This document shows, piece by piece, positions 1 to 12,327 of a stretch of DNA of 28,422 bases (position 1 is its first letter; every line of letters begins with the position of its first letter). A program made the translations under genes and the position numbers. The stretch covers positions 1,658 through 30,079 of the forward strand of contig CAYZPZ010000002.1 of NCBI GenBank assembly GCA_964480205.1, read 5' to 3'. This DNA is from an uncultured Conexibacteraceae bacterium (GTDB lineage: Bacteria > Actinomycetota > Thermoleophilia > Solirubrobacterales > 70-9). A model generated the notes under the pieces. The model ran no database searches and was not told the DNA's origin. It saw only the letters and a program-made list of their open reading frames with translations.

Positions 1-428
1 CCCGACAGACAGACCAGCCCTTCAGCGTGACGCTCCACCTCCTCCAGCGCGACCGAGGGCTGCAGGGGCTCGCGTTGATGCGAGGGTGCGCGACAGCGCA
101 ACCCGTTTGATGTTGATGATGAGGGCCGCGTGTCCCTATGCGCTTCGGTGATCAGCCGGCACAGGTTGGCCCAGCCCCGTGCCGACTCGACCAGCAGGGT
201 GAGGTGGGCGTCGCCGACGGTCAGCTCCGCGCCGTGGATGGGCCGGACACCAACTCCGCGGCAGGCGTGGGCGAACTCCATCGCCCCGCAGACGTTGTCG
301 TGGTCGGTGAGCGCCAGCGCCTCGAGCCCGAGGTCAGCTGCCGTAGCCGCCAGCTCGGCCGGCTCGGAGGCGCCGTCCAGGAAGGAGTAGGCCGAGTGGC
401 AGTGCAGCTCCGCGTAGACCGGCGCCAT
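1..428 (-). CDS. dnaE2: Error-prone DNA polymerase DnaE2/ImuC, N-terminal PHP domain (partial, runs off the window edge)
   Basis: Not in the ORF track; translated by hand from ATG at 428: MAPVYAELHCHSAYSFLDGASEPAELAATAADLGLEALALTDHDNVCGAMEF...PIHGAEL...HLTLLVESARGWANLCRLIT...EGLVCLSG, open to position 1. These are C-family polymerase PHP motifs. It lies downstream of imuB, and its ATG overlaps the upstream stop (TGATG). Confidence 0.87.
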   Translation of the reverse strand, partial: MAPVYAELHCHSAYSFLDGASEPAELAATAADLGLEALALTDHDNVCGAMEFAHACRGVGVRPIHGAELTVGDAHLTLLVESARGWANLCRLITEAHRDTRPSSSTSNGLRCRAPSHQREPLQPSVALEEVERHAEGLVCLS

Positions 429-673
429 CAGTCGCGCTGGCGATACCAGCGCCCCCCACCACCGGACTCGCAGAAGACCACCACGTCGCTGCCGTCCTCC
501 AGCACCAGCTCGAAGTAGCGGCGCCGCAGCGGCCGCCGCGTCCACCAGCCGTCCTCCACCAGCCACTCCTCGCGGACCGACTCCACGGCCAGCCTGCCCA
601 CCGCGCGCGGGACACCGTCGGAGCCGAGGTGGACGGGAACGGGCCAGGGCTTGTTCACGCGACCCGGTTTCAT
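428..673 (-). CDS. 81-aa protein resembling the ImuB C-terminal domain (DUF6504-like)
   Basis: True start is the internal ATG at 673 (MKPGRVNKPWPVPV...VESVREEWLVEDGWWTRRPLRRRYFELVLEDG...RWYRQRD). ATGA overlap with the imuB stop and TGATG overlap with the dnaE2 start indicate coupling on both sides. Confidence 0.75.
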   Translation of the reverse strand: MKPGRVNKPWPVPVHLGSDGVPRAVGRLAVESVREEWLVEDGWWTRRPLRRRYFELVLEDGSDVVVFCESGGGGRWYRQRD

Positions 674-1893
674 CGCCCCGGTTCCTCGGGAAAGGGCATA
701 AGAACCTCGCGCCGCTCGGGCACGCGTGAGTCGGGATCGACCTCGAACACCCGCAGCAGTGCGTCGGCGCCGGCGGCGGCACGGGTCTGGCGCACCGCCT
801 CGGAGATCCGGGCTCGCCGCCGCTCGTCGGGGCCGGCCAGGCTGAGCTGCTCGCCCGTGGCCGGGCCCAGCGCCGCCGCCTCCAGGCGCAGCACCGAGGC
901 CGGGCTGGGCAGCTGCGCGAGCAGAGGGGAGAGGACCGCGGCCAGCCGCTGGCGTTCGCTCGCCGCGCTGCGCAGGGCCACCCTGCGTCGCCACCCTCCG
1001 CCCGCGGCCAGCCTCGCCGAGAGCCGCAGCGCGCGCAGGCTGCGCCCGCGCCGCTGGGAGTGAGCCAGCAGCCTCGCGATCAGCAGCTCGAGCGCCCGCT
1101 CCAGCTGCTGGCCCGAGCTCGCCTCGGGCAGCTCCAGCTCGACCGCGATCTCCTGCCGGACCCGCCGCGGCCGCAGCGGCTCATCCTCGCCCCGTGCCAG
1201 GGCCCGCCCCCGCAGGCCCGCTCGACCGAAGCGATCGGCGACCGCCCCACGCGGCAGGCCCGCCAGCCGCCCCAGTGTGTCGATCCCGAGGCGCTCCAGC
1301 TCGTTGGGCAGATCGTCCTCGGCGTCCTCGGCGTTCCCCCGCCCTTCCGCGCCCAGCCTGCCGTGCAGCAGCGAGACCGGCAGCGGGGCCAGGAAGGAGC
1401 GGGCGTCGGCCTCGACGATCACGTTGCGCCGCCGGCTGCGCCGAGCCGCGGCGAAGGCGCAGAACCGCCCCGGTGCGACCGCCAGCCGCACGGGCGTTCC
1501 CACCGCGGGCCGGGCCGCGGCCAGCACCCCCGATCTGCCGCCCCAGAGTCCCCGCAGGCCATCCACCTCGAAGAAGGCCTCGCCGGCCCGCTCGGCCTCG
1601 ACCTCGGCGCCGATTCCCTCCAGGCCGCGCAGGGCCCGCTCCCAGATGCGCTCGGCCCGCTCGGGATCGGGCGGCACCAGCGCCAGCTCAGGACAGCGCG
1701 AGAGGGCCTCACCCAGCCGCATCCCGGCGCGGACCCCCAGCGCCTCGGCGGGGTCGGACACCTCGCCGAGGAGCTGCGCGGCGCCCGGCTCGGGGGCCAG
1801 CGCCGCCGGCCGCTTCAGGACCTCGCGCCGCTCGCCCAGCGCAGCGACGAGACGGAGGCGAGGGGCGAGTGCGCAGGCGGTCGGCTTCGACAT
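670..1893 (-). CDS. imuB: ImuB, catalytically inactive Y-family polymerase homolog
   Basis: Y-family segments (GVRAGMRLGEALSRCPEL, GEAFFEVDGL, LERLGIDTLGRL, VADRFG) without the catalytic acidic residues; QLSL clamp-binding-like motif; SOS box upstream; dnaE2 downstream. Confidence 0.85.
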   Translation of the reverse strand: MSKPTACALAPRLRLVAALGERREVLKRPAALAPEPGAAQLLGEVSDPAEALGVRAGMRLGEALSRCPELALVPPDPERAERIWERALRGLEGIGAEVEAERAGEAFFEVDGLRGLWGGRSGVLAAARPAVGTPVRLAVAPGRFCAFAAARRSRRRNVIVEADARSFLAPLPVSLLHGRLGAEGRGNAEDAEDDLPNELERLGIDTLGRLAGLPRGAVADRFGRAGLRGRALARGEDEPLRPRRVRQEIAVELELPEASSGQQLERALELLIARLLAHSQRRGRSLRALRLSARLAAGGGWRRRVALRSAASERQRLAAVLSPLLAQLPSPASVLRLEAAALGPATGEQLSLAGPDERRRARISEAVRQTRAAAGADALLRVFEVDPDSRVPERREVLMPFPEEPGR

Positions 1894-1900
1894 CAGCTAT

Positions 1901-1914
1901 CGAACGTATGTTCG
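1901..1914. promoter_or_regulatory. LexA/SOS box (Gram-positive/actinobacterial type)
   Basis: CGAAC-GTAT-GTTCG palindrome 7 nt upstream of the imuB ATG. It overlaps a minus-strand TACGTT -10-like hexamer (1908-1903). Confidence 0.85.
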
Positions 1915-1992
1915 TACAGGGCCCCGAAAAGGTCAAGCGAAATCGCAAAGAAAAGTCGCTCCGAGCGTCGCGCTCGGGTTACCCTGCGCTTG

Positions 1993-2181
1993 ATGCCGAA
2001 GAAGGAGCAGACAACCGAGGAGCTCCGTCAGGTCCAGCACGATCGGACCACCGACGAGCATGAGGCCCTGCAGCGCTCCGAGACCCCCGACGAGGCCGAC
2101 CAGCACCGGCGGCGGGCGGCGAAGTCGGCCTACCTGGAGCGCAAGCTCGCCGAGCGCGAGCGCACCGAGCGCGAGTCCTGA
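1993..2181 (+). CDS. 62-aa charged helical hypothetical protein
   Basis: MPKKEQTTEELRQVQHDRTTDEHEALQRSETPDEADQHRRRAAKSAYLERKLAERERTERES; GC3-rich codons; TACCCT -10 hexamer 7 nt before the ATG (leaderless). Confidence 0.7.
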   Translation: MPKKEQTTEELRQVQHDRTTDEHEALQRSETPDEADQHRRRAAKSAYLERKLAERERTERES

Positions 2182-2214
2182 CCTGGTCCCCGCGTGTGCC
2201 GGCGGCCGGCGCGG

Positions 2215-3285
2215 CTAGCCCACCGCATCGCGCGTCCTCTCGATCACCGCGTCAGTGAACTCGGTGGTGGAGGCGTGGCCGTTGAGGTCGGGGGTGCGGA
2301 TCCCTGCGCCGGTGGCCTCCATCACCGCAGCGTAGATCGCGCGCGAGGGGGCTGCGGCGGCGCCCAGGCCGGCCTCGGCGGCATAGTCGAGCAGCGCCGC
2401 CACCGCCAGGATCATCGCCATCGGGTTGGCGACGTCCTTGCCCTCCAGGGCGGGGGCGGTGCCGTGCGGCGCCTCGGCCATCGCCACCGCCGGGCGCAGT
2501 TGATCATCGAGCGCCAGCAGGATGGACTCCGCCCCCGCGATCGAGCCGAACAGCGGCAGCACCAGATCGGAGAGCAGGTCGCCGTCGCGGTTCAGGGACG
2601 GGATCACCAGAGGCACGTCCGCGCGCCCGCTGATCAGGCCCGCGTAGGTGGCGTCGATCAGCAGCGGCTCGTAGACGACCTCGGGATGACGCTCGGCGGC
2701 GGCGTCCATCTCCTCCTTCAGCATGCCCTCGTAGACCGGGCTGACCGTCCACTTCGGTCCGCCATAGACCTTGCCGCCGATCTTCTCGGCGGTCCGGAAG
2801 GCGTACTCGGCGACGGCCCGGCAATTGGAGCGATGGATCAGCTCGGTGCGGTAGGCGACCTCGTCCCCGTCGGCGTCCTCCCGCCACTGCTCGGCGCCAT
2901 AAGCGTCCTCGATCGCCATCCGCACCACCGAGATCGGATGGTGGATGCCGCCGAGCGGCGTCACCCCCGGGATCCTGCGGCCGGTGCGGACGATCACCTT
3001 GCCCTCGATCCCCTCTCGGATGATCCGGTTCGGGCTGCCCACATCGCTCGCTCCCTCCGGGGTGATCGTCGCCGCCTTGATCCCGTAGCCCGCCTCCCGC
3101 ATGGCGGCGGCCGCCCGCTCGCAGACCTCGTTTTTCGTGACCCGTCGGTTGTCGAGGGAGAGGTCGAATCGCTCCAGCTCGACCTCGATCCCGAGCAGTG
3201 CGGGATCCAGCAATCGCAGTGATTGCTCCAGCAGCTCCTGGCCGGTCTGATCGCCCTCGAGCACGACTATCCTCAGCGCGGGCAT
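2215..3285 (-). CDS. Isocitrate/isopropylmalate dehydrogenase family protein, isocitrate-dehydrogenase-like
   Basis: IVVLEGDQTGQE, GIKAATITP, SPNRIIR, NRDGDLLSDL and AEAPHGTAP...ANPMAMIL are family motifs. Confidence 0.9.
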   Translation of the reverse strand: MPALRIVVLEGDQTGQELLEQSLRLLDPALLGIEVELERFDLSLDNRRVTKNEVCERAAAAMREAGYGIKAATITPEGASDVGSPNRIIREGIEGKVIVRTGRRIPGVTPLGGIHHPISVVRMAIEDAYGAEQWREDADGDEVAYRTELIHRSNCRAVAEYAFRTAEKIGGKVYGGPKWTVSPVYEGMLKEEMDAAAERHPEVVYEPLLIDATYAGLISGRADVPLVIPSLNRDGDLLSDLVLPLFGSIAGAESILLALDDQLRPAVAMAEAPHGTAPALEGKDVANPMAMILAVAALLDYAAEAGLGAAAAPSRAIYAAVMEATGAGIRTPDLNGHASTTEFTDAVIERTRDAVG

Positions 3286-3303
3286 GGCGTGGCGAGCCTA
3301 TCC

Positions 3304-3642
3304 ATGAACGGCGCGGGCGAAAGCTGCACCTGGTGCGGAACGGCGGTGGAGGCCGATGACGGATTCCGGGCCTACGAGCCGGCGGGGGAGCGGCGCGCCG
3401 TCTTCTGCAGGCTGGAGCACGTGATCCCCTGGGCGATCCAGGACGCCCACTGGGAGCCCGGCGCGGTCGACGAGCCGCCCGGCCTCGACCGCGCCGTCGA
3501 GCGCTGCTCGCACTGCGAGGCGGAGCTCGGCGACACCCACGTGCTCCTGGTTCGCCACCGCGGCGAGCACCGCGTGGCCGACGGCTTCTGCTCGGTCGAC
3601 CACATGCAGGCCTGGGCCAGGGCGGGCGGGCGCTGGCAGTAA
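3304..3642 (+). CDS. 112-aa hypothetical protein with two CxxC...FCxxxH (TRASH/treble-clef-like) repeats
   Basis: CTWC...FCRLEH and CSHC...FCSVDH. ATG at 3304 chosen because the longer ORF overlaps the divergent dehydrogenase gene. Confidence 0.8.
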   Translation: MNGAGESCTWCGTAVEADDGFRAYEPAGERRAVFCRLEHVIPWAIQDAHWEPGAVDEPPGLDRAVERCSHCEAELGDTHVLLVRHRGEHRVADGFCSVDHMQAWARAGGRWQ

Positions 3643-3694
3643 GGAGCCGCCCCGCCAAATAGGGTCCGGATGACCACGACCCTGGAGGGACACC

Positions 3695-3853
3695 GTGACA
3701 GTGCTCTGGTTCATCATCTGGCTGATCGCCAACAACATCGGGGCCACCGAGCCGCTCGAGCTCGCCCCCGTGAACGGGTGGGTGGGAACGCTGATCCTCG
3801 CCATCGCCCTCGACCTCAACCGGCCGGTCGAGCTGAGGCTGCGAAGGGGATGA
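3695..3853 (+). CDS. 52-aa two-helix membrane peptide (missing from the ORF track)
   Basis: GTG at 3695 with SD GGAGGG at 3684-3689; MTVLWFIIWLIANNIGATEPLELAPVNGWVGTLILAIALDLNRPVELRLRRG; mostly GC3 codons; TAGGGT -10 candidate at 3660-3665. Confidence 0.7.
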   Translation: MTVLWFIIWLIANNIGATEPLELAPVNGWVGTLILAIALDLNRPVELRLRRG

Positions 3854-3890
3854 ATGCCCGCAGATTGCGGGAAGGCCCGTTCGGCCTCTC

Positions 3891-3919
3891 TTGACAGCGT
3901 CGGCGCCTCGGCGTAACGT
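3891..3919 (+). promoter_or_regulatory. Near-consensus housekeeping-sigma promoter
   Basis: TTGACA (3891-3896), a 17-nt spacer, then TAACGT (3914-3919). Confidence 0.75.
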
Positions 3920-3926
3920 CGCTTTC

Positions 3927-4012
3927 ACAGGGAACGACGCAAGTTGTTCCTTATGGAAAGACCGAAAGGTCGATCCAGACGAAGGGCCCGGGAAACTGGG
4001 CCCTTTCGTTTT
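3927..4012 (+). ncRNA. Candidate ~85-nt small structured RNA of unknown family
   Basis: Promoter upstream; three consecutive hairpins closed by GCAA, GAAA and GAAA tetraloops; G-U pairs are valid only on the + strand; terminator at the 3' end; the next gene is convergent. Confidence 0.65.
3979..4012 (+). terminator. Intrinsic terminator
   Basis: ACGAAGGGCCCGG-GAAA-CTGGGCCCTTTCGT stem, with a U-rich 3' arm and tail (TTTCGTTTT, 4004-4012). Confidence 0.8.
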
Positions 4013-5014
4013 CTACCGCCGCCGCTTCCCCTGCTGCTTCTTGGGTGCAGGTTCCTGCCCCGGCAGCGGCGCCGCGGCGAAGGCCGCGATCAGCGGGGCG
4101 AGCTGGTCGGGTGCCTCCACGTTCGGTGAGTGGCCGACCCCCTCGAGCAGCTGCAGCTGCACGCCGGGCACGTCGTCGAACGCGGCCGACGCCTCCTCCG
4201 CGGGATAGATCTGGTCGTCGGTGCCGAACACGACCAGCAGCGGCACTCCCAGGGCGGCGAGGCGCTCGTCGAGCGGCCGCTCCTCCGAGTAATCGCGCTC
4301 GGCATCAGAGGACTCGACGTAGGACGTGTATGTCATCGCCCGCAGGTCGTCGACGGGCTGGTCGGGGTTCTCGAAGCCGCTGGCGATGTTGAAGTCGGGC
4401 GCGAAGGCCTGCTCGTAGTTGGCGCGGACCGCGGAGCTGGGCGCGATCTGGGCCACCCGCCGCAGGGCCTGACCGAGCACCGGCCAGCGCGCGAGCCGGG
4501 CCGAGAGGGACATGTCCTCGAAGCTGTCGTCGGGCGCCTGGTCGACGTTGACGATCTTGACCGCCAGCTCCGGGCTCTGCTCGGCCAGGGCAGTCGCCAC
4601 CGTGGCGCCCATGGAGTGGCCCACCACAGTGGCGCCGGCGACGTCTAGCCGGGCCAGCGCCTCGGCCATGGCCTGGGCCTGGTCCTCCATCGCATAACCG
4701 CTGCTCGGCTTGTCCGAGCCGCCGTGGCCGAACAGATCGACCCGGATGACGCGATGGTCCGCCTCGAGCAGCGGCGTCAGCCGCTCGAACCAGCGCATTG
4801 AGGACGCATAGCCGTGGATGAGCACAATCGGGGGGCCCTGCGGGTTGCCCTCCTCGAGGACCTGCAGGGTGCCGGGGCCGGTGTCGATCAACTCCGAGCC
4901 CTCGATGTTGCGCTCGGCATTCTTGGTCTCGTTGGAGACCGCGATCGCGTTCAGCCCCAGCAGCACGAGGATGCCAGCCAGCACGGCCAGCGCGATCGTC
5001 AGCCAGCGGTTCAC
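4013..5014 (-). CDS. Membrane-anchored/secreted alpha/beta hydrolase
   Basis: Hydrophobic N-terminus, HGY oxyanion motif, GHSMG nucleophile, GVGHSP catalytic His; GTGA overlap with the upstream HD gene. Confidence 0.9.
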   Translation of the reverse strand: MNRWLTIALAVLAGILVLLGLNAIAVSNETKNAERNIEGSELIDTGPGTLQVLEEGNPQGPPIVLIHGYASSMRWFERLTPLLEADHRVIRVDLFGHGGSDKPSSGYAMEDQAQAMAEALARLDVAGATVVGHSMGATVATALAEQSPELAVKIVNVDQAPDDSFEDMSLSARLARWPVLGQALRRVAQIAPSSAVRANYEQAFAPDFNIASGFENPDQPVDDLRAMTYTSYVESSDAERDYSEERPLDERLAALGVPLLVVFGTDDQIYPAEEASAAFDDVPGVQLQLLEGVGHSPNVEAPDQLAPLIAAFAAAPLPGQEPAPKKQQGKRRR

Positions 5015-5613
5015 GCGGCGGTTTCGCTGCCCGCGTCGGCCTGCTCGCGCGGGCCGAGGCCGAGCTCGTCAGCGTGCTCGGTCAGCGCTCCGATCACCAG
5101 GGTGAGGTGCTCGTCGCGGTCGACCCCGAGCTCAGCGATGCCGCGCTCCACCTGGTCGCGGTCCACGGCCGCCGCGAAGGAGGGCTGCTTCAGCTTCTTG
5201 CGCACGGACTTCGGCTTCATCCCCTCGATTCCGGTAGGTCGGACCAGCGCGCAGGCGGCGACGAAGCCGGAGAGCTCGTCCACCGCGTACAGCGTCTTCG
5301 CAAGTTGGGTCTCGCGGGGTACCCCCATGAAGTCCGCGTGGCCGGCGACCGCGTCGATCACCTCCTGCGGATAGCCGAGCCGCTCGAGCTCGGCCAGCGC
5401 GTGGCGAGGATGACCGGTTTCCAGGTCGGGGTGGCGCTCGTAGTCGAGGTCGTGTACGAGCCCGGTGACCGCGTAGGTCTCCTCATCCTCGCCCCACTTG
5501 CGTGCGTAGGCGCGCATACAGGCTTCGACCCCGAGCAGGTGCTTCCGCAGCGAGTCCGACTCCACCCACTCGGTGACCAGCCGCCATGCATCGTCACGTG
5601 AGATCTCCGACAT
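5011..5613 (-). CDS. HD/HDIG-domain metal-dependent phosphohydrolase
   Basis: SLRKHLLGVE...GLVHDLDYE...AVDELSGF. Confidence 0.85.
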   Translation of the reverse strand: MSEISRDDAWRLVTEWVESDSLRKHLLGVEACMRAYARKWGEDEETYAVTGLVHDLDYERHPDLETGHPRHALAELERLGYPQEVIDAVAGHADFMGVPRETQLAKTLYAVDELSGFVAACALVRPTGIEGMKPKSVRKKLKQPSFAAAVDRDQVERGIAELGVDRDEHLTLVIGALTEHADELGLGPREQADAGSETAA

Positions 5614-5622
5614 CGCGCGGGT

Positions 5623-5629
5623 TACCCTA
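5623..5629. promoter_or_regulatory. Symmetric bidirectional -10 element between the HD gene and murA
   Basis: TACCCTA reads TACCCT on + and TAGGGT on -. The two start codons are only 23 nt apart and neither has an SD. Confidence 0.55.
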
Positions 5630-5636
5630 GACGCCG

Positions 5637-6938
5637 ATGGAGAAGTTCGTAATCCAGGGCGGCACGCCGCTCTCAGGCGAGATCGTGCCCGCCGGGAACA
5701 AGAACGCGGCCCTGCCGATCCTCGCCGCCTGCCTGCTCACCCCAGAGGAGCTGCGGATCTCCAACGTGCCGCGAATCCGCGACGTCGGCTCCATGCTCGC
5801 CCTGCTCGAGGGCCTCGGCGTCAAGGTGGAGTGGACCGGCGAGCACGAGGTCAGTCTGCGGGCCGACTCATTGACCAGCCAAGAGGTCGACGAGGAGCCC
5901 GCCAGCCGCATCCGCGCCTCGTTCCTGGCGGCGGGCCCTCTCTTGGCCCGCTTCGGCGAGGCCAAAATGCCCCCACCCGGAGGCGACACGATCGGCCGCC
6001 GCCGTCTGGACGCCCACCTCGACGCCTTCCGCGATCTCGGCGCGAAGGTCGGCGGCGGGGTCTGGATCGAGCTCTCCGGCCCGCCCAGCGGGCTGAAGGC
6101 GACCCGGATCTTCATGGACGAACCCTCGGTGATGGGGACCGAGAACGCCCTGCTGGCCGCGGCGCTGACGCCCGGCCCGACCACGATCGCCAACGCCGCC
6201 TCCGAGCCTCACGTCCAGGAGCTGGCGCGGCTGCTATGCAAGATGGGGGCCGAGGTGGAGGGGATCGGATCCAACGTGATGACCGTGCACGGCCGCGATC
6301 GGCTCGGCGGCGCCGAGCACCGGATCTGTCCCGACCACATCGAGATCGCGAGCTTCATGGCGCTGGCCGCGGCCACCGGTGGCGAGCTGCGGATCCGCGA
6401 CGCGGTCCCCGAGGACTTGGAGGGGATCCGCCGCCAGTTCCGCCGCCTCGGGCTGCAGTCGATGGTGGAGGGCCGCGACGTGCTGGTGCCGCCGGAGCAG
6501 AAGCTGACCATCCGCGACGACCAGGGCGACGCTATCCCCAAGATCGACGATGGCCCCTGGCCGGCCTTTCCCGCGGATCTGACCTCGATCGCGCTGGCGC
6601 TGGCCACCCAGGCGGACGGCACGATCCTGATCTTCGAGAAGATGTTCGAGAACCGCCTCTTCTTCGTCGACAAGCTGGTGGCGATGGGCGCTCGGATCAC
6701 GCTGTGCGACCCTCACAGGGCGATCGTCAGCGGTCCGAGCCGTCTTCACGGCGCGCGCCTGGAGAGCCCGGACATCCGCGCCGGGATGGCGATGCTCATC
6801 GCGGCGCTCGCCGCTGACGGCACCTCGGAGATCGGCAACATCACGCAGATCGACCGCGGCTACGAGCGCATCGACCTGCGCCTGCGCGAGCTCGGCGCGA
6901 GGATCGATCGCGCTGCCACCGAGAAGGTCCCCGCCTAG
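5637..6938 (+). CDS. murA: UDP-N-acetylglucosamine 1-carboxyvinyltransferase
   Basis: AGNKNAALPIL, IRASFL, PGGDTIGRR, ASEPHV, PAFPADL, MFENR, SPDIRAG, IDRGYE. Confidence 0.96.
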   Translation: MEKFVIQGGTPLSGEIVPAGNKNAALPILAACLLTPEELRISNVPRIRDVGSMLALLEGLGVKVEWTGEHEVSLRADSLTSQEVDEEPASRIRASFLAAGPLLARFGEAKMPPPGGDTIGRRRLDAHLDAFRDLGAKVGGGVWIELSGPPSGLKATRIFMDEPSVMGTENALLAAALTPGPTTIANAASEPHVQELARLLCKMGAEVEGIGSNVMTVHGRDRLGGAEHRICPDHIEIASFMALAAATGGELRIRDAVPEDLEGIRRQFRRLGLQSMVEGRDVLVPPEQKLTIRDDQGDAIPKIDDGPWPAFPADLTSIALALATQADGTILIFEKMFENRLFFVDKLVAMGARITLCDPHRAIVSGPSRLHGARLESPDIRAGMAMLIAALAADGTSEIGNITQIDRGYERIDLRLRELGARIDRAATEKVPA

Positions 6939-6986
6939 CAACCGTCGTCGCAGGGCGCCCGCGCCGGCCGCTCTAAGGTGGCCGAC

Positions 6987-8003
6987 GTGAAGATCCACCC
7001 GATTCCACCGGGAACCCGGGACATCCTCCCGGACGAGATGCGCGAGCTGCGCGCCTTGCAGGCGAGCCTCGAGGAGGTCTTCGAGCGCTACGGCTACGGC
7101 CAGGTGGCCACGCCCACCCTCGAGTACGACGAGGTGCTGAAGCTGGGGGAGGGGCGCAGCGCGATGGGCGCCTATCGATTCTTCGACGAGCGCGGCGACC
7201 TGCTCGCGCTGCGGTCGGACATGACGATTCCGATCGCCCGGCTGGCCGCCAGCCGCTTCGCCGACGCCGACCCCCCGCTGCGCTTCTCCTACATGGGAAA
7301 CGCCTACCGCGCGGTGCGTCCCCAGCGCGCCCAGCTGCGCCAGTTCATGCACGCCGGGGTGGAGCTGCTCGGGGCCCCCGCCCCGGAGGGAACCGCCGAG
7401 GTGATCGAGGTGCTGAGCGCCTCGCTGGACGCGGTGGGGCTGAATCGCGCCGTGGTCGGCCTCGGCGACGCCGACCTCTACGCCCAGCTCCTCGCCGAGC
7501 TGGGGGTGGCCGGCGAGCGGCGTGATCGGATCATCGATCGACTCGCCAGCCACGATCTGGTCGGCCTGGAGATGGAGATCGAGGCGGTCGAGGAGCTGGA
7601 TCCCGGCGGGCGGGAAACGCTCCTGCGCCTGCCTGGCCTGCGGGGCGGTGCCGAGGTGCTCGATCGTGCCGGTGAGCTCGGCGGCGAGGCCCTCGAGCAC
7701 GCGGCGCAGCGCCTGCGCGCCACCTATGAGTCGCTGGTCGAACGCGGGGTCGCCGAGCGGGTGCGGCTCGACCTCGGCCTGCTGCGGGACCTCGGCTACT
7801 ACACCGGGGCGATCCTCGAGGTATACGACCCCGCCCTCGGCCACATCCTCGGCGGCGGGGGCCGCTATGACAACCTGCTCGGCCGCTTCGCCCGCCCGAT
7901 GCCGGCCGCGGGCTTCAGCCTCTATCTGGAGCGTGTCCACCTGGCCCAGATGGAGGAGGAGCGGGTCGCCTCCGAGGGCCTGGTGGAGGAGGGTGCGAAA
8001 TGA
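6987..8003 (+). CDS. hisZ: ATP phosphoribosyltransferase regulatory subunit
   Basis: PPGTRDILP, LRSDMTIPIAR, YYTG, GGGRYDNLL; precedes short HisG. GTG at 6987 is preferred over 6978 because TAAGGT sits 7 nt upstream. Confidence 0.92.
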   Translation: MKIHPIPPGTRDILPDEMRELRALQASLEEVFERYGYGQVATPTLEYDEVLKLGEGRSAMGAYRFFDERGDLLALRSDMTIPIARLAASRFADADPPLRFSYMGNAYRAVRPQRAQLRQFMHAGVELLGAPAPEGTAEVIEVLSASLDAVGLNRAVVGLGDADLYAQLLAELGVAGERRDRIIDRLASHDLVGLEMEIEAVEELDPGGRETLLRLPGLRGGAEVLDRAGELGGEALEHAAQRLRATYESLVERGVAERVRLDLGLLRDLGYYTGAILEVYDPALGHILGGGGRYDNLLGRFARPMPAAGFSLYLERVHLAQMEEERVASEGLVEEGAK

Positions 8004-8695
8004 GTCCCACCGTGGAGGGGGCGATCCGGACCAGGCTCGGTGGCTCGCTGAAGCTGGCGATCCCGCGCGGGGCCCTCTGGGAGCCCACCCTCGACGCGCT
8101 AGACGCGATCGGGGTGGATACCGCCCAGCCGCGCGGCGACTCCCGCGCGCTCGTCTTCCAGACCGCCAACGGCTCGGGCGAGCTGACCCTGGTCACCATG
8201 CGCCCCTCCGACGTGCCCACCTACGTCGAGGCGGGCGCCGCGGATCTGGGCATCACCGGCAAGGACGTGCTGCTGGAGCACTCGGACCGGATCGTGTACG
8301 AGATCCTCGACCTGACCTACGGCGCCTGCCGCATGGTCCTGGCCGGGCGCAAGGGAGACGCAAGCCTCGGCGAGTCGGAGCGGCGGCTGGGCGCGATGAG
8401 GATCGCCACCAAGTACCCCAGGATCGCCGAGCGCCACTTCGAGCGGACCGGTCGCCAGGCCGAGGTGGTCGAGGTCAAGGGCTCGGTGGAGCTGGCGCCG
8501 CTGGTGGGGCTGGCCGATGGAATCGTCGATCTGGTCGCGACCGGACGAACCCTGGAGGAGAACGGCCTGGAGGTGCGAGAGGAGATCGCCGGCTCCACCG
8601 CCCGGCTGGTCGCCAACCGCGTCTCGCACAAGCTCCGCGCCGAAGAGATCGATCGCCTGGTGGGGGCGCTGCGCTCGAACCGGGCGGGCCGATGA
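8000..8695 (+). CDS. hisG: ATP phosphoribosyltransferase, short form
   Basis: RPSDVPTYVEAGAADLGITGKDVLLE, IATKYP, GSVELAPLVGLADGIVDLVATGRTL; no C-terminal regulatory domain. Confidence 0.95.
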   Translation: MSPTVEGAIRTRLGGSLKLAIPRGALWEPTLDALDAIGVDTAQPRGDSRALVFQTANGSGELTLVTMRPSDVPTYVEAGAADLGITGKDVLLEHSDRIVYEILDLTYGACRMVLAGRKGDASLGESERRLGAMRIATKYPRIAERHFERTGRQAEVVEVKGSVELAPLVGLADGIVDLVATGRTLEENGLEVREEIAGSTARLVANRVSHKLRAEEIDRLVGALRSNRAGR

Positions 8696-8708
8696 GGCCG
8701 GAGCGGAG

Positions 8709-9989
8709 ATGAGGGTCACCCGATTCGACTGGGACGGGGGAGATCCCCGCTCCCTGGCCGGCGAGCTGCGGGCGCTGCAGCCGCCGCTGGAGGAAGTCGC
8801 CGACGCGGTCGCGGCGATCGTCGCCGACGTCGCTGACCGCGGCGACGCCGCGGTGCTGGAGGCGGAGCGCAGCTTCGGCGCCGCGGAGCCGGAGGCGCTG
8901 GCGCCCTCGGCGCAGGCCCTGCAGTCGGCGGCCGAGCGGATTCCGGTGGAGCTGCGCCATGCCCTGGAGCTGGCGGCCGAGAACATCCGGCGCGTCTCCG
9001 CGGCCGAGGGGAAGGCCGACGTGAGGGTGACCCTGCGCCAGGAGCACTCCGTGCGGCTGCGCAGCGTGGCGGTCGGGGTCGCGGGGGCCTACGTGCCCGG
9101 CGGCGGCGGAGCCTATCCCTCGACGGCGCTGATGTGCTGCGTGCCGGCGCGGGTCGCGGGGGTGGAGCGGGTGGCGATTGCCACCCCGCCGGGGCCGGAC
9201 GGCCGCGTCCCCGATGCGGTCCTGGCGGCGGCGGCGATCGGCGGCGCGGACCGGCTCTACACGGCCGGGGGCGCCCAGGCCATCGCCGCGCTGGCGCTGG
9301 GCACCGAGAGCGTCGAGCCGGTCGACGTGGTGGTCGGCCCCGGCAACCGCTACGTGCAGGAGGCCAAGCGCCAGCTCTTTGGCCGGGTGGGAATTGATGG
9401 GATCGCCGGGCCAAGCGAGCTGATGGTGATCTGTGACGACTCCGCCCCCTCGGAGTGGATAGCCCTCGACCTCTGTGCCCAGGCCGAGCACGGCGGCGAT
9501 GGCCTGCTCGCGGCGGCTGCCGCGGAGGACCGGCTGCTGGAGGCGCTCGAGGCCGAGGTCACCCGGCTGGCAGGCGAGCGCGAGAGCCTCCCCGATGCCC
9601 CGCTTGCCCTGGTCCGGGTCCCCTCGCTGGGGGCGGGGGTGGAGCTGGCCAACGCGCTCGCGCCAGAGCACCTTCAGATCGCCTGCGTGGGAAATGACGA
9701 ACTGTCCCTGCGGGCGCGCACTCCCGGCTGCGTCTTCATCGGCCCTCGCGCAGCCACCGCCTTCGGGGACTACGCGGCGGGGTCCAACCACGTCCTCCCC
9801 ACCGGGGGTACCGGCCGCTTCACCGGGCCGCTCGGGCCCAGCGTCTTCCGGCGCCGCATCGCCACCGTGAAGATCCCCGAGGACGCCGCCCGGGAGCTGG
9901 CGCCCTCTGTCGCTACATTGGCCCGCTCCGAGGGCTTTGAGCTCCACGCAGAGTCCGCCGAGATGCGAGGGCGCCCCGCGAATGAGTAG
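8709..9989 (+). CDS. hisD: Histidinol dehydrogenase
   Basis: GAYVPGG, GPGNRYV, IAGPSE, AQAEH, APEHL, GDYAAGSNHVLPTGG; start placed at the internal ATG at 8709. Confidence 0.95.
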   Translation: MRVTRFDWDGGDPRSLAGELRALQPPLEEVADAVAAIVADVADRGDAAVLEAERSFGAAEPEALAPSAQALQSAAERIPVELRHALELAAENIRRVSAAEGKADVRVTLRQEHSVRLRSVAVGVAGAYVPGGGGAYPSTALMCCVPARVAGVERVAIATPPGPDGRVPDAVLAAAAIGGADRLYTAGGAQAIAALALGTESVEPVDVVVGPGNRYVQEAKRQLFGRVGIDGIAGPSELMVICDDSAPSEWIALDLCAQAEHGGDGLLAAAAAEDRLLEALEAEVTRLAGERESLPDAPLALVRVPSLGAGVELANALAPEHLQIACVGNDELSLRARTPGCVFIGPRAATAFGDYAAGSNHVLPTGGTGRFTGPLGPSVFRRRIATVKIPEDAARELAPSVATLARSEGFELHAESAEMRGRPANE

Positions 9990-10572
9990 AACAGCCGAGA
10001 TCAGGCGCAGCACCAAGGAGACCGAGATCGTGCTCACCCTCTCGCTCGACGGCGGCGAGTCTCAGATCTCCACCGGGATCGGCTTCCTCGACCACATGCT
10101 CGAGCTGCTCGCTCGGCATGGCCGCCTTGCACTGGCGGTGGAGGCCAAGGGCGACCTGGAGACGGGCGCGCACCACACCACCGAGGACGTGGGGATCGTG
10201 CTCGGTCAGGCCCTGGACCAGGCGCTGGGCGACCGTGCGGGGATCCACCGCTACGGCTTCGCCACCGTGCCCATGGACGAGGCGCTGGCCGAGTGCGCGA
10301 TCGACATCTCCGGCAGGCCGCTGACCATCTACGAGGCGGAGCTGCCCGACGTCAGCATCGCCGGCTTCGACACCGAGCTCGCGGAGGAGTTCTTCCGCGC
10401 GATCGCAAACAACGCCAAGCTCACCCTGCATGTTCGGGTTCGCCACGGCTCCAACGCCCACCACATGATCGAGGCCGCCTTCAAGGCGTTCGCCCGGGCC
10501 CTGCGCGAGGCGGTCTCCCTCGATCCGGGCGAGAGCGGCGTGCCCTCGACCAAGGGGACCCTGACGCAGTGA
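9982..10572 (+). CDS. hisB: Imidazoleglycerol-phosphate dehydratase
   Basis: RSTKET, TGIGFLDHML, HHTTEDVG, PMDEAL, NAHHMIEA, PSTKG; start ATG at 9982. Confidence 0.96.
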   Translation: MSRTAEIRRSTKETEIVLTLSLDGGESQISTGIGFLDHMLELLARHGRLALAVEAKGDLETGAHHTTEDVGIVLGQALDQALGDRAGIHRYGFATVPMDEALAECAIDISGRPLTIYEAELPDVSIAGFDTELAEEFFRAIANNAKLTLHVRVRHGSNAHHMIEAAFKAFARALREAVSLDPGESGVPSTKGTLTQ

Positions 10573-11192
10573 TGAGGATTGCGATCCTCGACTACGGGAT
10601 GGGCAACCTGCGCTCGGTGGAGAAGGCGCTCGAACGGATCGGTGCCGCCCCAGAGATCAGCGCCGAAGCCGGCGCCGCGGCCGACGCTGACGGCGTCATC
10701 CTGCCCGGCGTCGGTGCCTTCCCGAAGGCGATGGAGCGAGTCCGCGAGGCCGGCTTCGACGAGCTGCTCGCCCGCCGCATCGAGGCGAACCGCCCTGTGC
10801 TCGGGATCTGCCTGGGCATGCAGCTTCTGTTCGAAGGCTCCAGCGAGAACCAGGGCGCCACGGGCCTGGGGCTGATCCAGGGACCGGTCGGCCCGCTGGA
10901 GGCCAACGGCTACAAGGTGCCGCACATCGGCTGGTCCCCGGTCAACTGGGAGCGATCCTCGCGCCTGGCGGAGGGGCTCAAGCCCGACGAGCCCTTCTAC
11001 TTCGTGCACTCGTTCGCGCCGCGGCCGGCGGACGCCCGGGACGTACTCGGGACCGCCGCCTACGGCGAGCGGTTCGCCTGCGCGATCGAGCGTCCGCCCC
11101 TCTACGGCGCCCAGTTCCACCCGGAGAAGTCCAGCGCGGCGGGGCTGCGCCTGCTGCGCAACTTCGCCGAGATCTGCGCGTCGCCGGCTTGA
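10572..11192 (+). CDS. hisH: IGP synthase glutamine amidotransferase subunit
   Basis: DYGMGNLRSV, LPGVGAF, GICLGMQ, VPHIGW, YFVHS, QFHPEKS; TGATG coupling to hisB. Confidence 0.96.
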   Translation: MRIAILDYGMGNLRSVEKALERIGAAPEISAEAGAAADADGVILPGVGAFPKAMERVREAGFDELLARRIEANRPVLGICLGMQLLFEGSSENQGATGLGLIQGPVGPLEANGYKVPHIGWSPVNWERSSRLAEGLKPDEPFYFVHSFAPRPADARDVLGTAAYGERFACAIERPPLYGAQFHPEKSSAAGLRLLRNFAEICASPA

Positions 11193-11218
11193 CGCGGCGA
11201 TCGGAGGGGTAACGGGCC

Positions 11219-11944
11219 TTGATCCTCTATCCCGCGATCGACATCCTCGACGGCCGCACGGTGCGCCTGGCCCAGGGCGACTACGAGCGATCGACCTCCT
11301 ACGAGGAGGACCCGGTGGCCGCCGCCCGCCGCTGGGAGGCGGACGGGGCGCGCTGGCTTCACGTGGTCGACCTCGACGGCGCCCGTGAGGGGGGGCCGCG
11401 CAACCTCGACCAGGTGCGTCGAATCGTCGCCGCAGTCGGCGCCCCGATCCAGCTGGGAGGGGGCCTGCGCGACTCCAAGCGCGTGGAGGAGGCGATCTCC
11501 GCCGGGGTGGAGCGCGTGGTGCTCGGCACCACGGCCGCCCGCGATCCCGACGTGGCCGAGGCGATCGCCGCCGCCCATCCCGAACGGGTCCTTGTCTCCG
11601 TGGACGCGCGGCAGGGGAGGGTCGCCGCCCAGGGCTGGACCGAGCGCTCGCGAATGACGCCCAGCGAGCTGATCACCGAGCTTGCGGACCGCGGGGTCCG
11701 CCGGTTCATCTACACCCCGGTGGAGGTCGACGGGCTGATGCAGGGCCCCGACCTCGACTCGCTGCGCCCGCTGGCGGAGGCCACCGAGGCAGAGTTGATC
11801 TACTCGGGCGGGGTGGGCTCGCTGGAGGACCTGCGCGCGCTTGCGGACCTGGGGCTCCCGAACGTGGGCGGCGTGATCGTGGGCAGGGCGCTGTACGAGG
11901 GCCGCTTCAGCGTCGCGGAGGCGATCGGCGCGCTCGGCGGCTGA
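11219..11944 (+). CDS. hisA: ProFAR isomerase
   Basis: LYPAIDI, HVVDLDGA, QLGGGLR, DGLMQGP, SGGVGS, GRALYEG; TTG start with GGAGGG SD. Confidence 0.93.
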   Translation: MILYPAIDILDGRTVRLAQGDYERSTSYEEDPVAAARRWEADGARWLHVVDLDGAREGGPRNLDQVRRIVAAVGAPIQLGGGLRDSKRVEEAISAGVERVVLGTTAARDPDVAEAIAAAHPERVLVSVDARQGRVAAQGWTERSRMTPSELITELADRGVRRFIYTPVEVDGLMQGPDLDSLRPLAEATEAELIYSGGVGSLEDLRALADLGLPNVGGVIVGRALYEGRFSVAEAIGALGG

Positions 11945-11964
11945 CCGGGGGATAGATTCCCGCC

Positions 11965-12327
11965 ATGCGGAGGCTGTTCGGTCCGTTCTTCGTGTTTGCC
12001 GGAGTCATGCACTTCGTCAAGCCGCGCGCCTATGAGCGGATCATGCCGCCGCGATTGCCGCATCCCCGGGAGCTGGTCTACGCGAGCGGCGTCGCCGAGA
12101 TCGCGGGCGGACTGGCCACCATGCATCCGGCAACCCGGAGGGCGGGCAGCGTCTGGAGCATCGCCACCCTGCTGGCGGTATTCCCCGCGAACCTCCACAT
12201 GGCGCTCGAGGCCGAGCGCTTCGAGAAGGCGGTGCCAGGCGGCAGGCCGGCGCTGTGGGCACGGCTGCCGGTGCAGGCCCTGTTCATCGCCTGGGCATAC
12301 GCGGCGGGCGACTGGGACGACTCCTAG
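11965..12327 (+). CDS. DoxX-like small membrane protein
   Basis: FVFAGVMHF...MPP...VYASGVAEIAGG...VFPANLHMA; TAGATT 6 nt upstream of the ATG. Confidence 0.85.
   Translation: MRRLFGPFFVFAGVMHFVKPRAYERIMPPRLPHPRELVYASGVAEIAGGLATMHPATRRAGSVWSIATLLAVFPANLHMALEAERFEKAVPGGRPALWARLPVQALFIAWAYAAGDWDDS

Follow-up and report, generated by a model that had tools for sequence, protein, structure and literature searches.

Qrr RNAs are controlled by LuxO, are transcribed from sigma-54 promoters and act by Hfq-dependent base pairing through a conserved single-stranded seed. In ANTAR-target RNAs, two hairpins lie side by side, each with a loop of six nucleotides that has A in position 1 and G in position 4. 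RsmX/Y/Z and CsrB/C are protein-sequestering RNAs of gamma-Proteobacteria, activated by GacA or UvrY via an upstream palindrome (UvrY targets: PMC4682653). The Thermoleophilia are a large group of soil Actinomycetota, mostly uncultured and apparently without Hfq, and almost nothing is known of their regulation by RNA. The locus described here lies in a stretch of 28,422 nucleotides (nt) from an uncultured Conexibacteraceae bacterium (assembly GCA_964480205.1, contig CAYZPZ010000002.1, positions 1,658 to 30,079, forward strand). This whole stretch is called the window, and coordinates refer to it. Positions 3857-4014 very probably constitute a complete, independent non-coding RNA gene whose product is an RNA of about 86 nt, that is, a stand-alone small RNA (sRNA) gene of a hairpin-array family. 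The unit is classed as a one-module (type A) member of this family, which is found in uncultured Solirubrobacterales. The family is new to databases, lineage-specific and undescribed.

The elements of the gene are listed by position.

3857-3871, + strand: palindromic box CCCGCAGATTGCGGG, a perfect palindrome, centred about 62 nt upstream of the predicted start, with GCGGGA ending 18 nt before the -35 hexamer.
3891-3896, + strand: -35 hexamer TTGACA, found by sequence reading; T, T and A are invariant, and G and C are at least 90% kept, in 34 homologous promoters.
3914-3919, + strand: -10 hexamer TAACGT, of the TAnnnT type, 17 nt past the -35 hexamer; T3914, A3915 and T3919 are invariant in the 34 promoters.
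3926-3927, + strand: predicted transcription start, 7-8 nt past the -10 hexamer, placed according to promoter geometry.
3929-3952, + strand: hairpin 1, a 10-base-pair (bp) stem with a GGAAC/GUUCC base, a GCAA loop and two G-U pairs, in the minimum free energy (MFE) fold.
3954-3977, + strand: hairpin 2, the single repeat module, UGGA-AA-GACC-GAAA-GGUC-GA-UCCA, with 4+4 bp, an AA/GA internal loop and a GAAA loop, in the MFE fold.
3979-4009, + strand: stem-loop of hairpin 3, with a GAAA loop, one G-U pair and one bulged U.
3979-4014, + strand: intrinsic terminator, a 14-bp stem with one bulged U, a GAAA loop and a UUUUCU tail (DNA TTTTCT), from the fold and a terminator scan.

A preliminary description of the locus had proposed a TTGACA-17 nt-TAACGT promoter followed by three hairpins with GNRA loops. 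The promoter was read at the same positions, and the hairpins at 3929-3952, 3954-3977 and 3979-4009 were returned exactly by RNAfold, with loops GCAA, GAAA and GAAA. The fold of 3926-4015 on the + strand (-49.8 kcal/mol; z = -7.59; 0 of 200 shuffles as good) has exactly these three hairpins. The - strand folds much more poorly (-36.4 kcal/mol; z = -4.66), which agrees with the three G-U pairs forming on the + strand only, an asymmetry that had also been pointed out. The terminator scan of the + strand reported 3981-4006 plus CGTTTTCTAC. The same description had called the segment AT-richer than its surroundings, and indeed 3891-4012 has a G+C content of 56.6%, whereas the flanking genes have 70-73% and the window as a whole 71.1%. 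In the MFE fold of the RNA, about 5 of the 86 nt are unpaired outside the three tetraloops. A peptide gene starting at ATG 3953 was considered and rejected; its frame crosses the terminator to 4129, and relatives have no ATG there. A 93-nt query matched soil metagenome DNA runs; no RNA run was among the matches listed.

Relatives were sought by BLAST against 60 related genomes. Partial matches were obtained in several genera of the same family, and reading of these gave whole units. Loci were also fetched via a Cys-rich protein of 139 amino acids (aa) encoded upstream of the RNA gene; nearly all of these 54 loci are labelled as uncultured Solirubrobacterales, Thermoleophilia or broader actinobacterial metagenome-assembled genomes, mostly from soil. 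Altogether, 46 distinct units, including those of later loci, were collected from uncultured Solirubrobacterales. All share the box, a TTGAC...TAnnnT promoter, a 5′ hairpin with a GAAC/GUUC base and a near-identical terminator. They have differing upstream sequences and are followed by differing genes or by another unit. Some loci carry two or three units in series, each with its own promoter. The genome of the window (86% complete) carries only one copy.

In type A units, hairpin 1 (GGAAC...GNRA...GUUCC) is followed by 0-6 copies of the module and then by the terminator. The module consensus is ACGGAGAAGCCGCAAGGCCAAUCCA: a GGA/UCC outer stem of 3-4 bp, a 2x2 or 3x3 purine-rich internal loop, an inner stem of 3-4 bp and a GNRA loop. 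Its form can be written GGA, purine loop, GNCC-GNRA-GGNC (consensus GCC-GNRA-GGC), purine loop, UCC. The modules repeat with a period of 23-29 nt. The single module of the window (3954-3977) aligns without gaps to 26 modules of relatives. Relatives with zero modules have a linker of 5-7 nt (UUAGAGA, CCAGAGA) between hairpin 1 and the terminator. The shared terminator (ACGAAGGGCCCGGGnnACyGGGCCCUUUCGUUU; (A)CGAAGGGCCC-loop-GGGCCCUUUCGUUU) ends homologous units in other genera; that of the window is 88-95% identical to those of units in G010 and G033 and 82-83% identical in G026 and G015 (G, genome). The hairpin-1 loop starts exactly 19 nt past the -10 hexamer in 16 of 19 type A units; the GCAA of the window (3939-3942) is at index 19. 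The RNA would therefore begin 2-3 nt before hairpin 1.

The preliminary description had named conservation and covariation in relatives as a check. The unit was found to be conserved, with compensatory changes in hairpin 1 and in the module. Among 19 homologues of hairpin 1 (17 distinct), 88.8% of the cells are paired, versus 35-56% when the partner is slid. Four of its 10 pairs are changed on both sides, and the apical pair is CG in 9 and GC in 8. For 27 modules from 7 genomes, 79.6% of the cells are paired, versus 12-43% when slid, and 7 of the 8 pairs have compensatory changes. The core CC-GNRA-GG of the module is nearly invariant, the GGAAC/GUUCC base of hairpin 1 is kept in sequence and the apical stems covary. 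The pattern of conservation indicates that the promoter, the box, the RNA helices and the terminator of the unit are under purifying selection.

The palindrome CCCGCAGATTGCGGG at 3857-3871 was missed in the preliminary description. In the collected units, the family box CCGCAGATTGCGGGA, or its variant CGCAAAACGCGGGA, ends 18 nt before the -35 hexamer. The box has the form CGCA-n3/4-(T)GCGGGA; here the window aligns without gaps with 33 other promoters. Four positions of the box, G3860 and G3867-C3868-G3869, never vary among these 34 aligned promoters, and conservation of the flanking C, C and A is 90% or more. The spacer from the box to the -35 hexamer is free in sequence but fixed in length in nearly all 34 rows. 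The promoters of relatives have CTTGAC, then 17-18 nt, then mostly TAGGGT or TAGGTT. A generic promoter scan of 1-12000 found nothing, because TAACGT matches just 3 of the 6 positions of TATAAT. The sequence of the box is kept without covariation, so that recognition is most likely at the DNA level. The box is presumed to be the site of a dimeric transcription regulator.

A promoter profile built on sequence only has one match in the genome of the window and 1-3 matches in other genomes. It matches 23 of 151 genomes of the order, and multiple matches are mostly within about 4 kb of each other. Every match that was read has the box and then a short structured RNA with a U tract, never a protein gene. 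Box copies as a wider regulon were considered and rejected. The only other plausible sites in the genome of the window have 3 mismatches, and elsewhere in five g55 genomes the bare box is no commoner than a reversed control. A recurrent near-match lies inside the nrdR coding sequence and is attributed to chance. At L115, L119, L122 (L, locus) and G000 C42:560-860 (- strand; G000, genome of the window; C, contig), a leader of some 150 nt comes after nrdR; it contains long inverted repeats (CAGUUUGCGGG...CCCGCAAAYA) and is possibly regulatory. The product of the next gene begins MPRATSKAP... and is taken by us, from reading by eye, to be a ribonucleotide reductase.

The strong matches of the profile are type A and type B genes. 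The weaker ones have the same box and spacing and other RNA bodies. Types B and C have the promoter, 5′ bases, GAAC/GUUC helix, linker and terminator of type A; their apical part is longer or different. They often adjoin a type A gene and are regarded as paralogues of type A. In type B (for example L043:3010-3101 and L060:3060-3151), the sequence is highly conserved (CACUUGAACAAGACAGGUUGAUCGAAAGGUCAAUCAGGUCAGUUCAAACAG), and a second, distal box is often present about 55-60 nt further upstream. In type C (for example L031:3634-3723 and L033:3667-3756), one or two GGA are exposed in internal loops, and three copies were seen within about 1.4 kb.

Three further types are found behind the same promoter. 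Type D, which occurs in other genera of the family, is about 135 nt long and has a three-way junction, with invariant CGAAGGCUACG and GGCAGGC, a closing stem and a U tract; 9 of its 36 pairs have compensatory changes among 5 sequences. Type E is a structured RNA of 125-150 nt in two other families of the order (GAGACGCGGA...GCAAAGAGCGAGGCC...CGCGUCUC). Type F (GCACCGAG...CCGGCUCGGUG plus U tract), an RNA of about 120 nt, is present in 12 of the 23 genomes of family f9, which belongs to a different order of the class. Types D, E and F have no match in Rfam. Their loci are as follows.

Type D: L092:1575-1713 (+), L093:1368-1502 (-), L094:1368-1502 (-), L097:1364-1498 (-) and L100:1335-1475 (-).
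Types E and F: L095, L098, L101, L105 and L106 (about 1500-1720 each) and L130-L133.

A transfer-messenger RNA (tmRNA) gene lies within about 1 kb of the structured RNA at L101 and L106. A regulator gene beside the D, E and F loci was looked for and discarded as an explanation, the neighbours varying by locus. Type D was not found in the genome of the window, nor by BLAST in five hairpin-type genomes; a genus seems to carry either the hairpin-array or the type D RNA, the negative evidence for this being weak. One Thermoleophilia-wide regulator might act via the TTCGCAnnnTGCGGGA box and drive non-homologous stable RNAs (hairpin arrays, types A-C, in some genera; three-way-junction RNAs, types D-F, in others) that are functional equivalents acting on one conserved partner in the cell. 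This would be a CsrA-independent global switch of the Gac/Rsm or 6S kind in which the RNA was repeatedly replaced behind a lasting promoter; the idea is speculative and rather unlikely to hold in full.

The neighbouring genes are listed below.

3223-3642, + strand: gene of the 139-aa Cys-rich protein, upstream neighbour, with a weak DUF7576 match; a syntenic marker outside the RNA gene.
3695-3853, + strand: 52-aa open reading frame (ORF) from the ORF list, between the Cys-rich gene and the RNA gene and outside the latter.
4013-5014, - strand: convergent alpha/beta-hydrolase gene (Abhydrolase_1, E = 2e-27), whose stop codon abuts the terminator tail.

The true start of the Cys-rich protein is probably near 3304, and two copies of a CxxC...FC..(E/D)H motif suggest two zinc ribbons. 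Of the 54 loci at which relatives of this protein were found, about 30 have between one and three sRNA units immediately downstream. Among 151 genomes of the order, 84 encode the protein, and its presence does not follow that of the promoter box. It was rejected as regulator or partner of the RNA; it occurs in many genomes without the promoter and is missing from some having it. The protein is a syntenic neighbour only. The 52-aa ORF has a GGAGGG ribosome-binding site 6 nt before its GTG, G or C as the last base of 48 of its 52 codons, and two stretches of hydrophobic residues; it probably encodes a real small two-helix membrane protein. It has no Pfam match and is absent from the homologous loci that were read.

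Both upstream ORFs have the orientation of the RNA, and only 38 nt separate the stop of the 52-aa ORF (3853) from the -35 hexamer. The RNA could thus be the 3′ untranslated region (UTR), or a processed 3′ fragment, of the mRNA of the 52-aa ORF or of the 139-aa gene. The promoter and box are nevertheless kept in more than 30 species without the 52-aa ORF, the distance to the upstream gene varies, and units in series each have their own promoter. A 3′ UTR origin is therefore extremely improbable. This supports the claim of the preliminary description that the unit is an independent sRNA gene (its own promoter is kept in many relatives whatever gene lies upstream) and speaks against the 3′ UTR of the 3695-3853 mRNA, which that description had named as an outcome that would refute it.

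Downstream, the neighbours are the hydrolase and an HD-domain protein, both on the other strand, and no co-oriented gene follows. The preliminary description was right that the next gene is convergent (4013-5014, - strand) and leaves nothing for a riboswitch to control. A riboswitch or attenuator was rejected on this ground and because homologous units precede different genes or another unit. A type III toxin-antitoxin RNA (ToxI-like) was also rejected, no co-oriented endoribonuclease toxin gene following the array.

The proposed mode of action is as follows. A dedicated dimeric regulator would bind the box near -62 and switch the gene on. The transcript would start 2-3 nt before hairpin 1 and end at the terminator. 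With this start and end, it would be almost fully base-paired and should resist nucleases. The RNA would then act in trans by binding, and probably titrating, a protein. This protein would recognise the GGAAC/GUUCC helix and/or the module, and the number of modules would set the valency. The preliminary description had likewise proposed a trans-acting RNA, with a purine-rich internal loop that could bind a protein. Action by protein binding or titration is put forward tentatively, with somewhat less than even confidence. It is favoured over base pairing because almost no base is unpaired, the apical stems covary while the base and core are fixed, and the module is multiplied. An expandable array of one module with hardly any unpaired base points to protein capture and not to base pairing.

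When a bacterial sRNA stands alone and has an intrinsic terminator and a regulated promoter, base pairing is its commonest mode of action. Opening of a helix could free a conserved segment to pair with mRNAs, for example the pyrimidine-rich, anti-Shine-Dalgarno-like 3′ arm of hairpin 1 (GUUGUUCCUU) or the purine-rich linker that precedes the terminator. In both hairpin 1 and the terminator the 3′ arm is CU-rich, and relatives with zero modules keep the 5-7 nt linker. However, the window RNA has only those roughly 5 unpaired nt outside its tetraloops, and a tetraloop is not long enough to make kissing contacts. Covariation in the apical half of hairpin 1 shows that its sequence is free, and five genomes yielded no Hfq. 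A classical base-pairing sRNA is considered an unlikely, though not negligible, alternative.

The RNA product could also be functionless. The unit might then act in cis or at the DNA level, either as a strong promoter and terminator that together insulate the convergent genes or by drawing off the regulator or RNA polymerase, or it might be a neutral remnant with hairpins that survive as terminator-like structure. The gap between the genes is convergent, and many relatives are without any sRNA unit at the locus, the hydrolase gene following directly. The loops behave as generic stability elements, and module number varies freely. A purely DNA-level role leaves unexplained the compensatory changes of the helices, the fixed distance of hairpin 1 to the -10 hexamer and the strand asymmetry of the G-U pairs. 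Moreover, the promoter always precedes a folded RNA, of several unrelated shapes, across the class. Such a role is judged improbable.

Several points weigh against protein titration under a dedicated regulator. The start, the end and the expression of the transcript are predictions, and the regulator is deduced from the conserved palindrome alone. The only RNA-binding global regulator found is CsrA, whose occurrence does not match that of these RNAs; no Hfq was found in the five genomes searched. The loops switch between GNRA and UUCG among sibling RNAs and terminators; they may therefore serve stability and not recognition. The window RNA has a single module, so that arguments from valency rest on relatives. 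No shuffle attains the covariation score observed for hairpin 1, but the sequences are related, and shuffle statistics therefore overstate independence. The slid controls keep this relatedness, yet they separate cleanly from the observed pairing.

A particular form of titration is a CsrA sponge of the RsmX/Y/Z-CsrB type, in which the GGA on the 5′ side of hairpin 1 and of the modules would bind a FliW-less CsrA. A csrA gene is present in the genome of the window (G000 C124:3835-3987; 89 bits; 74-aa protein; locus L129:1436-1660, +), and CsrA is encoded in 138 of 151 genomes of the order. FliW was found in 16 of the 151 genomes, none of them in family f1, to which the genome of the window belongs, and it adjoins a second csrA copy in the pairs compared. 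The presence of CsrA is unexpected for Actinomycetota, and a CsrA without FliW and without BarA/UvrY is unusual. In a published survey, 340 of 346 CsrA-bearing genomes had FliW or BarA-UvrY (PMC4682653); a CsrA antagonist of another kind is therefore expected in the genomes of this order. A modular, palindrome-activated sRNA is the obvious candidate. Its layout resembles that of rsmY/Z (upstream palindrome, housekeeping promoter, modular hairpins, paralogues), GGA outnumbers UCC by 71 to 26 in type A RNAs, and 24 of 27 aligned modules hold at least one GGA.

The placement of the motif does not fit this proposal. No hairpin loop contains GGA, all being GNRA, and most GGAs pair with UCC. Substitution by GGU/ACC preserves the pair but not the GGA motif. 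The window RNA has 3 GGA, of which only 1 is mostly unpaired in the MFE fold. The density of GGA is 3.7 per 100 nt, and in the co-regulated type B it is 1.4 per 100 nt, several copies having none. In RsmZ or CsrB it is about 6 per 100 nt. Nor does CsrA follow the RNAs. CsrA was not found in the RNA-bearing genomes G097, G010, G015 and G009 (81-95% complete), three of which have multi-module arrays. Of the 23 genomes of family f9, 12 have the promoter and RNA and 2 have CsrA; of the 26 genomes of family f7, 17 have CsrA and none has a match to the promoter. A CsrA sponge is thus very unlikely, because the placement of the motif misfits and CsrA does not co-occur with the RNAs.

The divergent neighbour of csrA (G000 C124:3177-3722; locus L129:778-1323, -) encodes a 181-aa protein with a helix-turn-helix-like N-terminal segment, an acidic linker, an arginine run (RPRRRRRRRRGGRGRRRKRG) and a C-terminal domain. 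It has no Pfam match. The pair of csrA and this gene is also found in G024 and G026. The 181-aa protein could be a nucleic-acid-binding partner or a regulator of csrA.

With so specific a promoter signature, all of the regulated RNAs of any genome in the class, 1-3 in each, can be found. The box is kept while the RNA behind the promoter changed shape between genera, which is a natural experiment on the replacement of regulatory RNAs. Identification of the partner protein and the regulator would establish a new post-transcriptional circuit for a major lineage of the soil. Even if the RNA is partnerless, the family keeps its value as an example of RNA structure that is under strong selection but has no known role.

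Comparison with known RNAs gave the following results. The preliminary description could match the RNA to no known one, and this stood: the whole window has no match in Rfam 15 at gathering threshold. At permissive E-values only noise is seen, the best scores being 15-19 bits versus thresholds of 39-106 and resting on the terminator. A divergent 6S or signal recognition particle RNA was rejected; both were found at other loci in relatives. An ANTAR-target dual hairpin RNA was also rejected, all loops being tetraloops. No description was found in the full-text literature on sRNAs of Solirubrobacterales or on actinobacterial sRNAs with GNRA loops or tandem hairpins.

The module resembles what we take to be helix 27 of 16S rRNA (GGGGAGUACGGCCGCAAGGCUAAAACUC); the 16S genes of the relatives G079 and G111 contain this rRNA string, which is the part of the comparison that was checked. 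Common features are a short outer stem starting with GG, a purine-rich internal loop, a GGCC/GGCY stem and GCAA; the core GGCCGCAAGGC is identical in some modules. The internal loop is GAGUA/UAAAAC in helix 27 versus GA/AA in the module, and the outer stem is GGG/CUC versus GGA/UCC. This is a resemblance only, and no mimicry is claimed; chance alone can produce a GC-rich GCAA hairpin of such a size.

In working principle, the systems nearest to the family are RsmX/Y/Z with CsrB/C, and sibling sRNAs under a single regulator such as Qrr1-5. The family resembles Qrr1-5 of the LuxO system by its several paralogous short RNA genes per genome, with a common promoter, 5′ hairpin base and terminator (types A, B and C). 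It differs from Qrr by having no obvious seed, by the promoter of the hairpin-array family, which is of housekeeping type, and by Hfq, which was not found in the five genomes searched.

RsmX/Y/Z and CsrB/C differ from the family in several respects: its loops are GNRA and not GGA, its GGA are mostly paired, CsrA does not co-occur with it and its lineage is Actinomycetota. Two tested defining features of Csr/Rsm, exposed GGA and co-occurrence with CsrA, are thus missing, so that the family is not a member, and the likeness is one of working principle only. It consists of a stand-alone gene with a housekeeping promoter, an upstream inverted repeat and a terminator, of similar hairpins in variable number, of 1-3 paralogues and of a regulator site nearly exclusive to sRNA genes, as was found for UvrY targets (PMC4682653).

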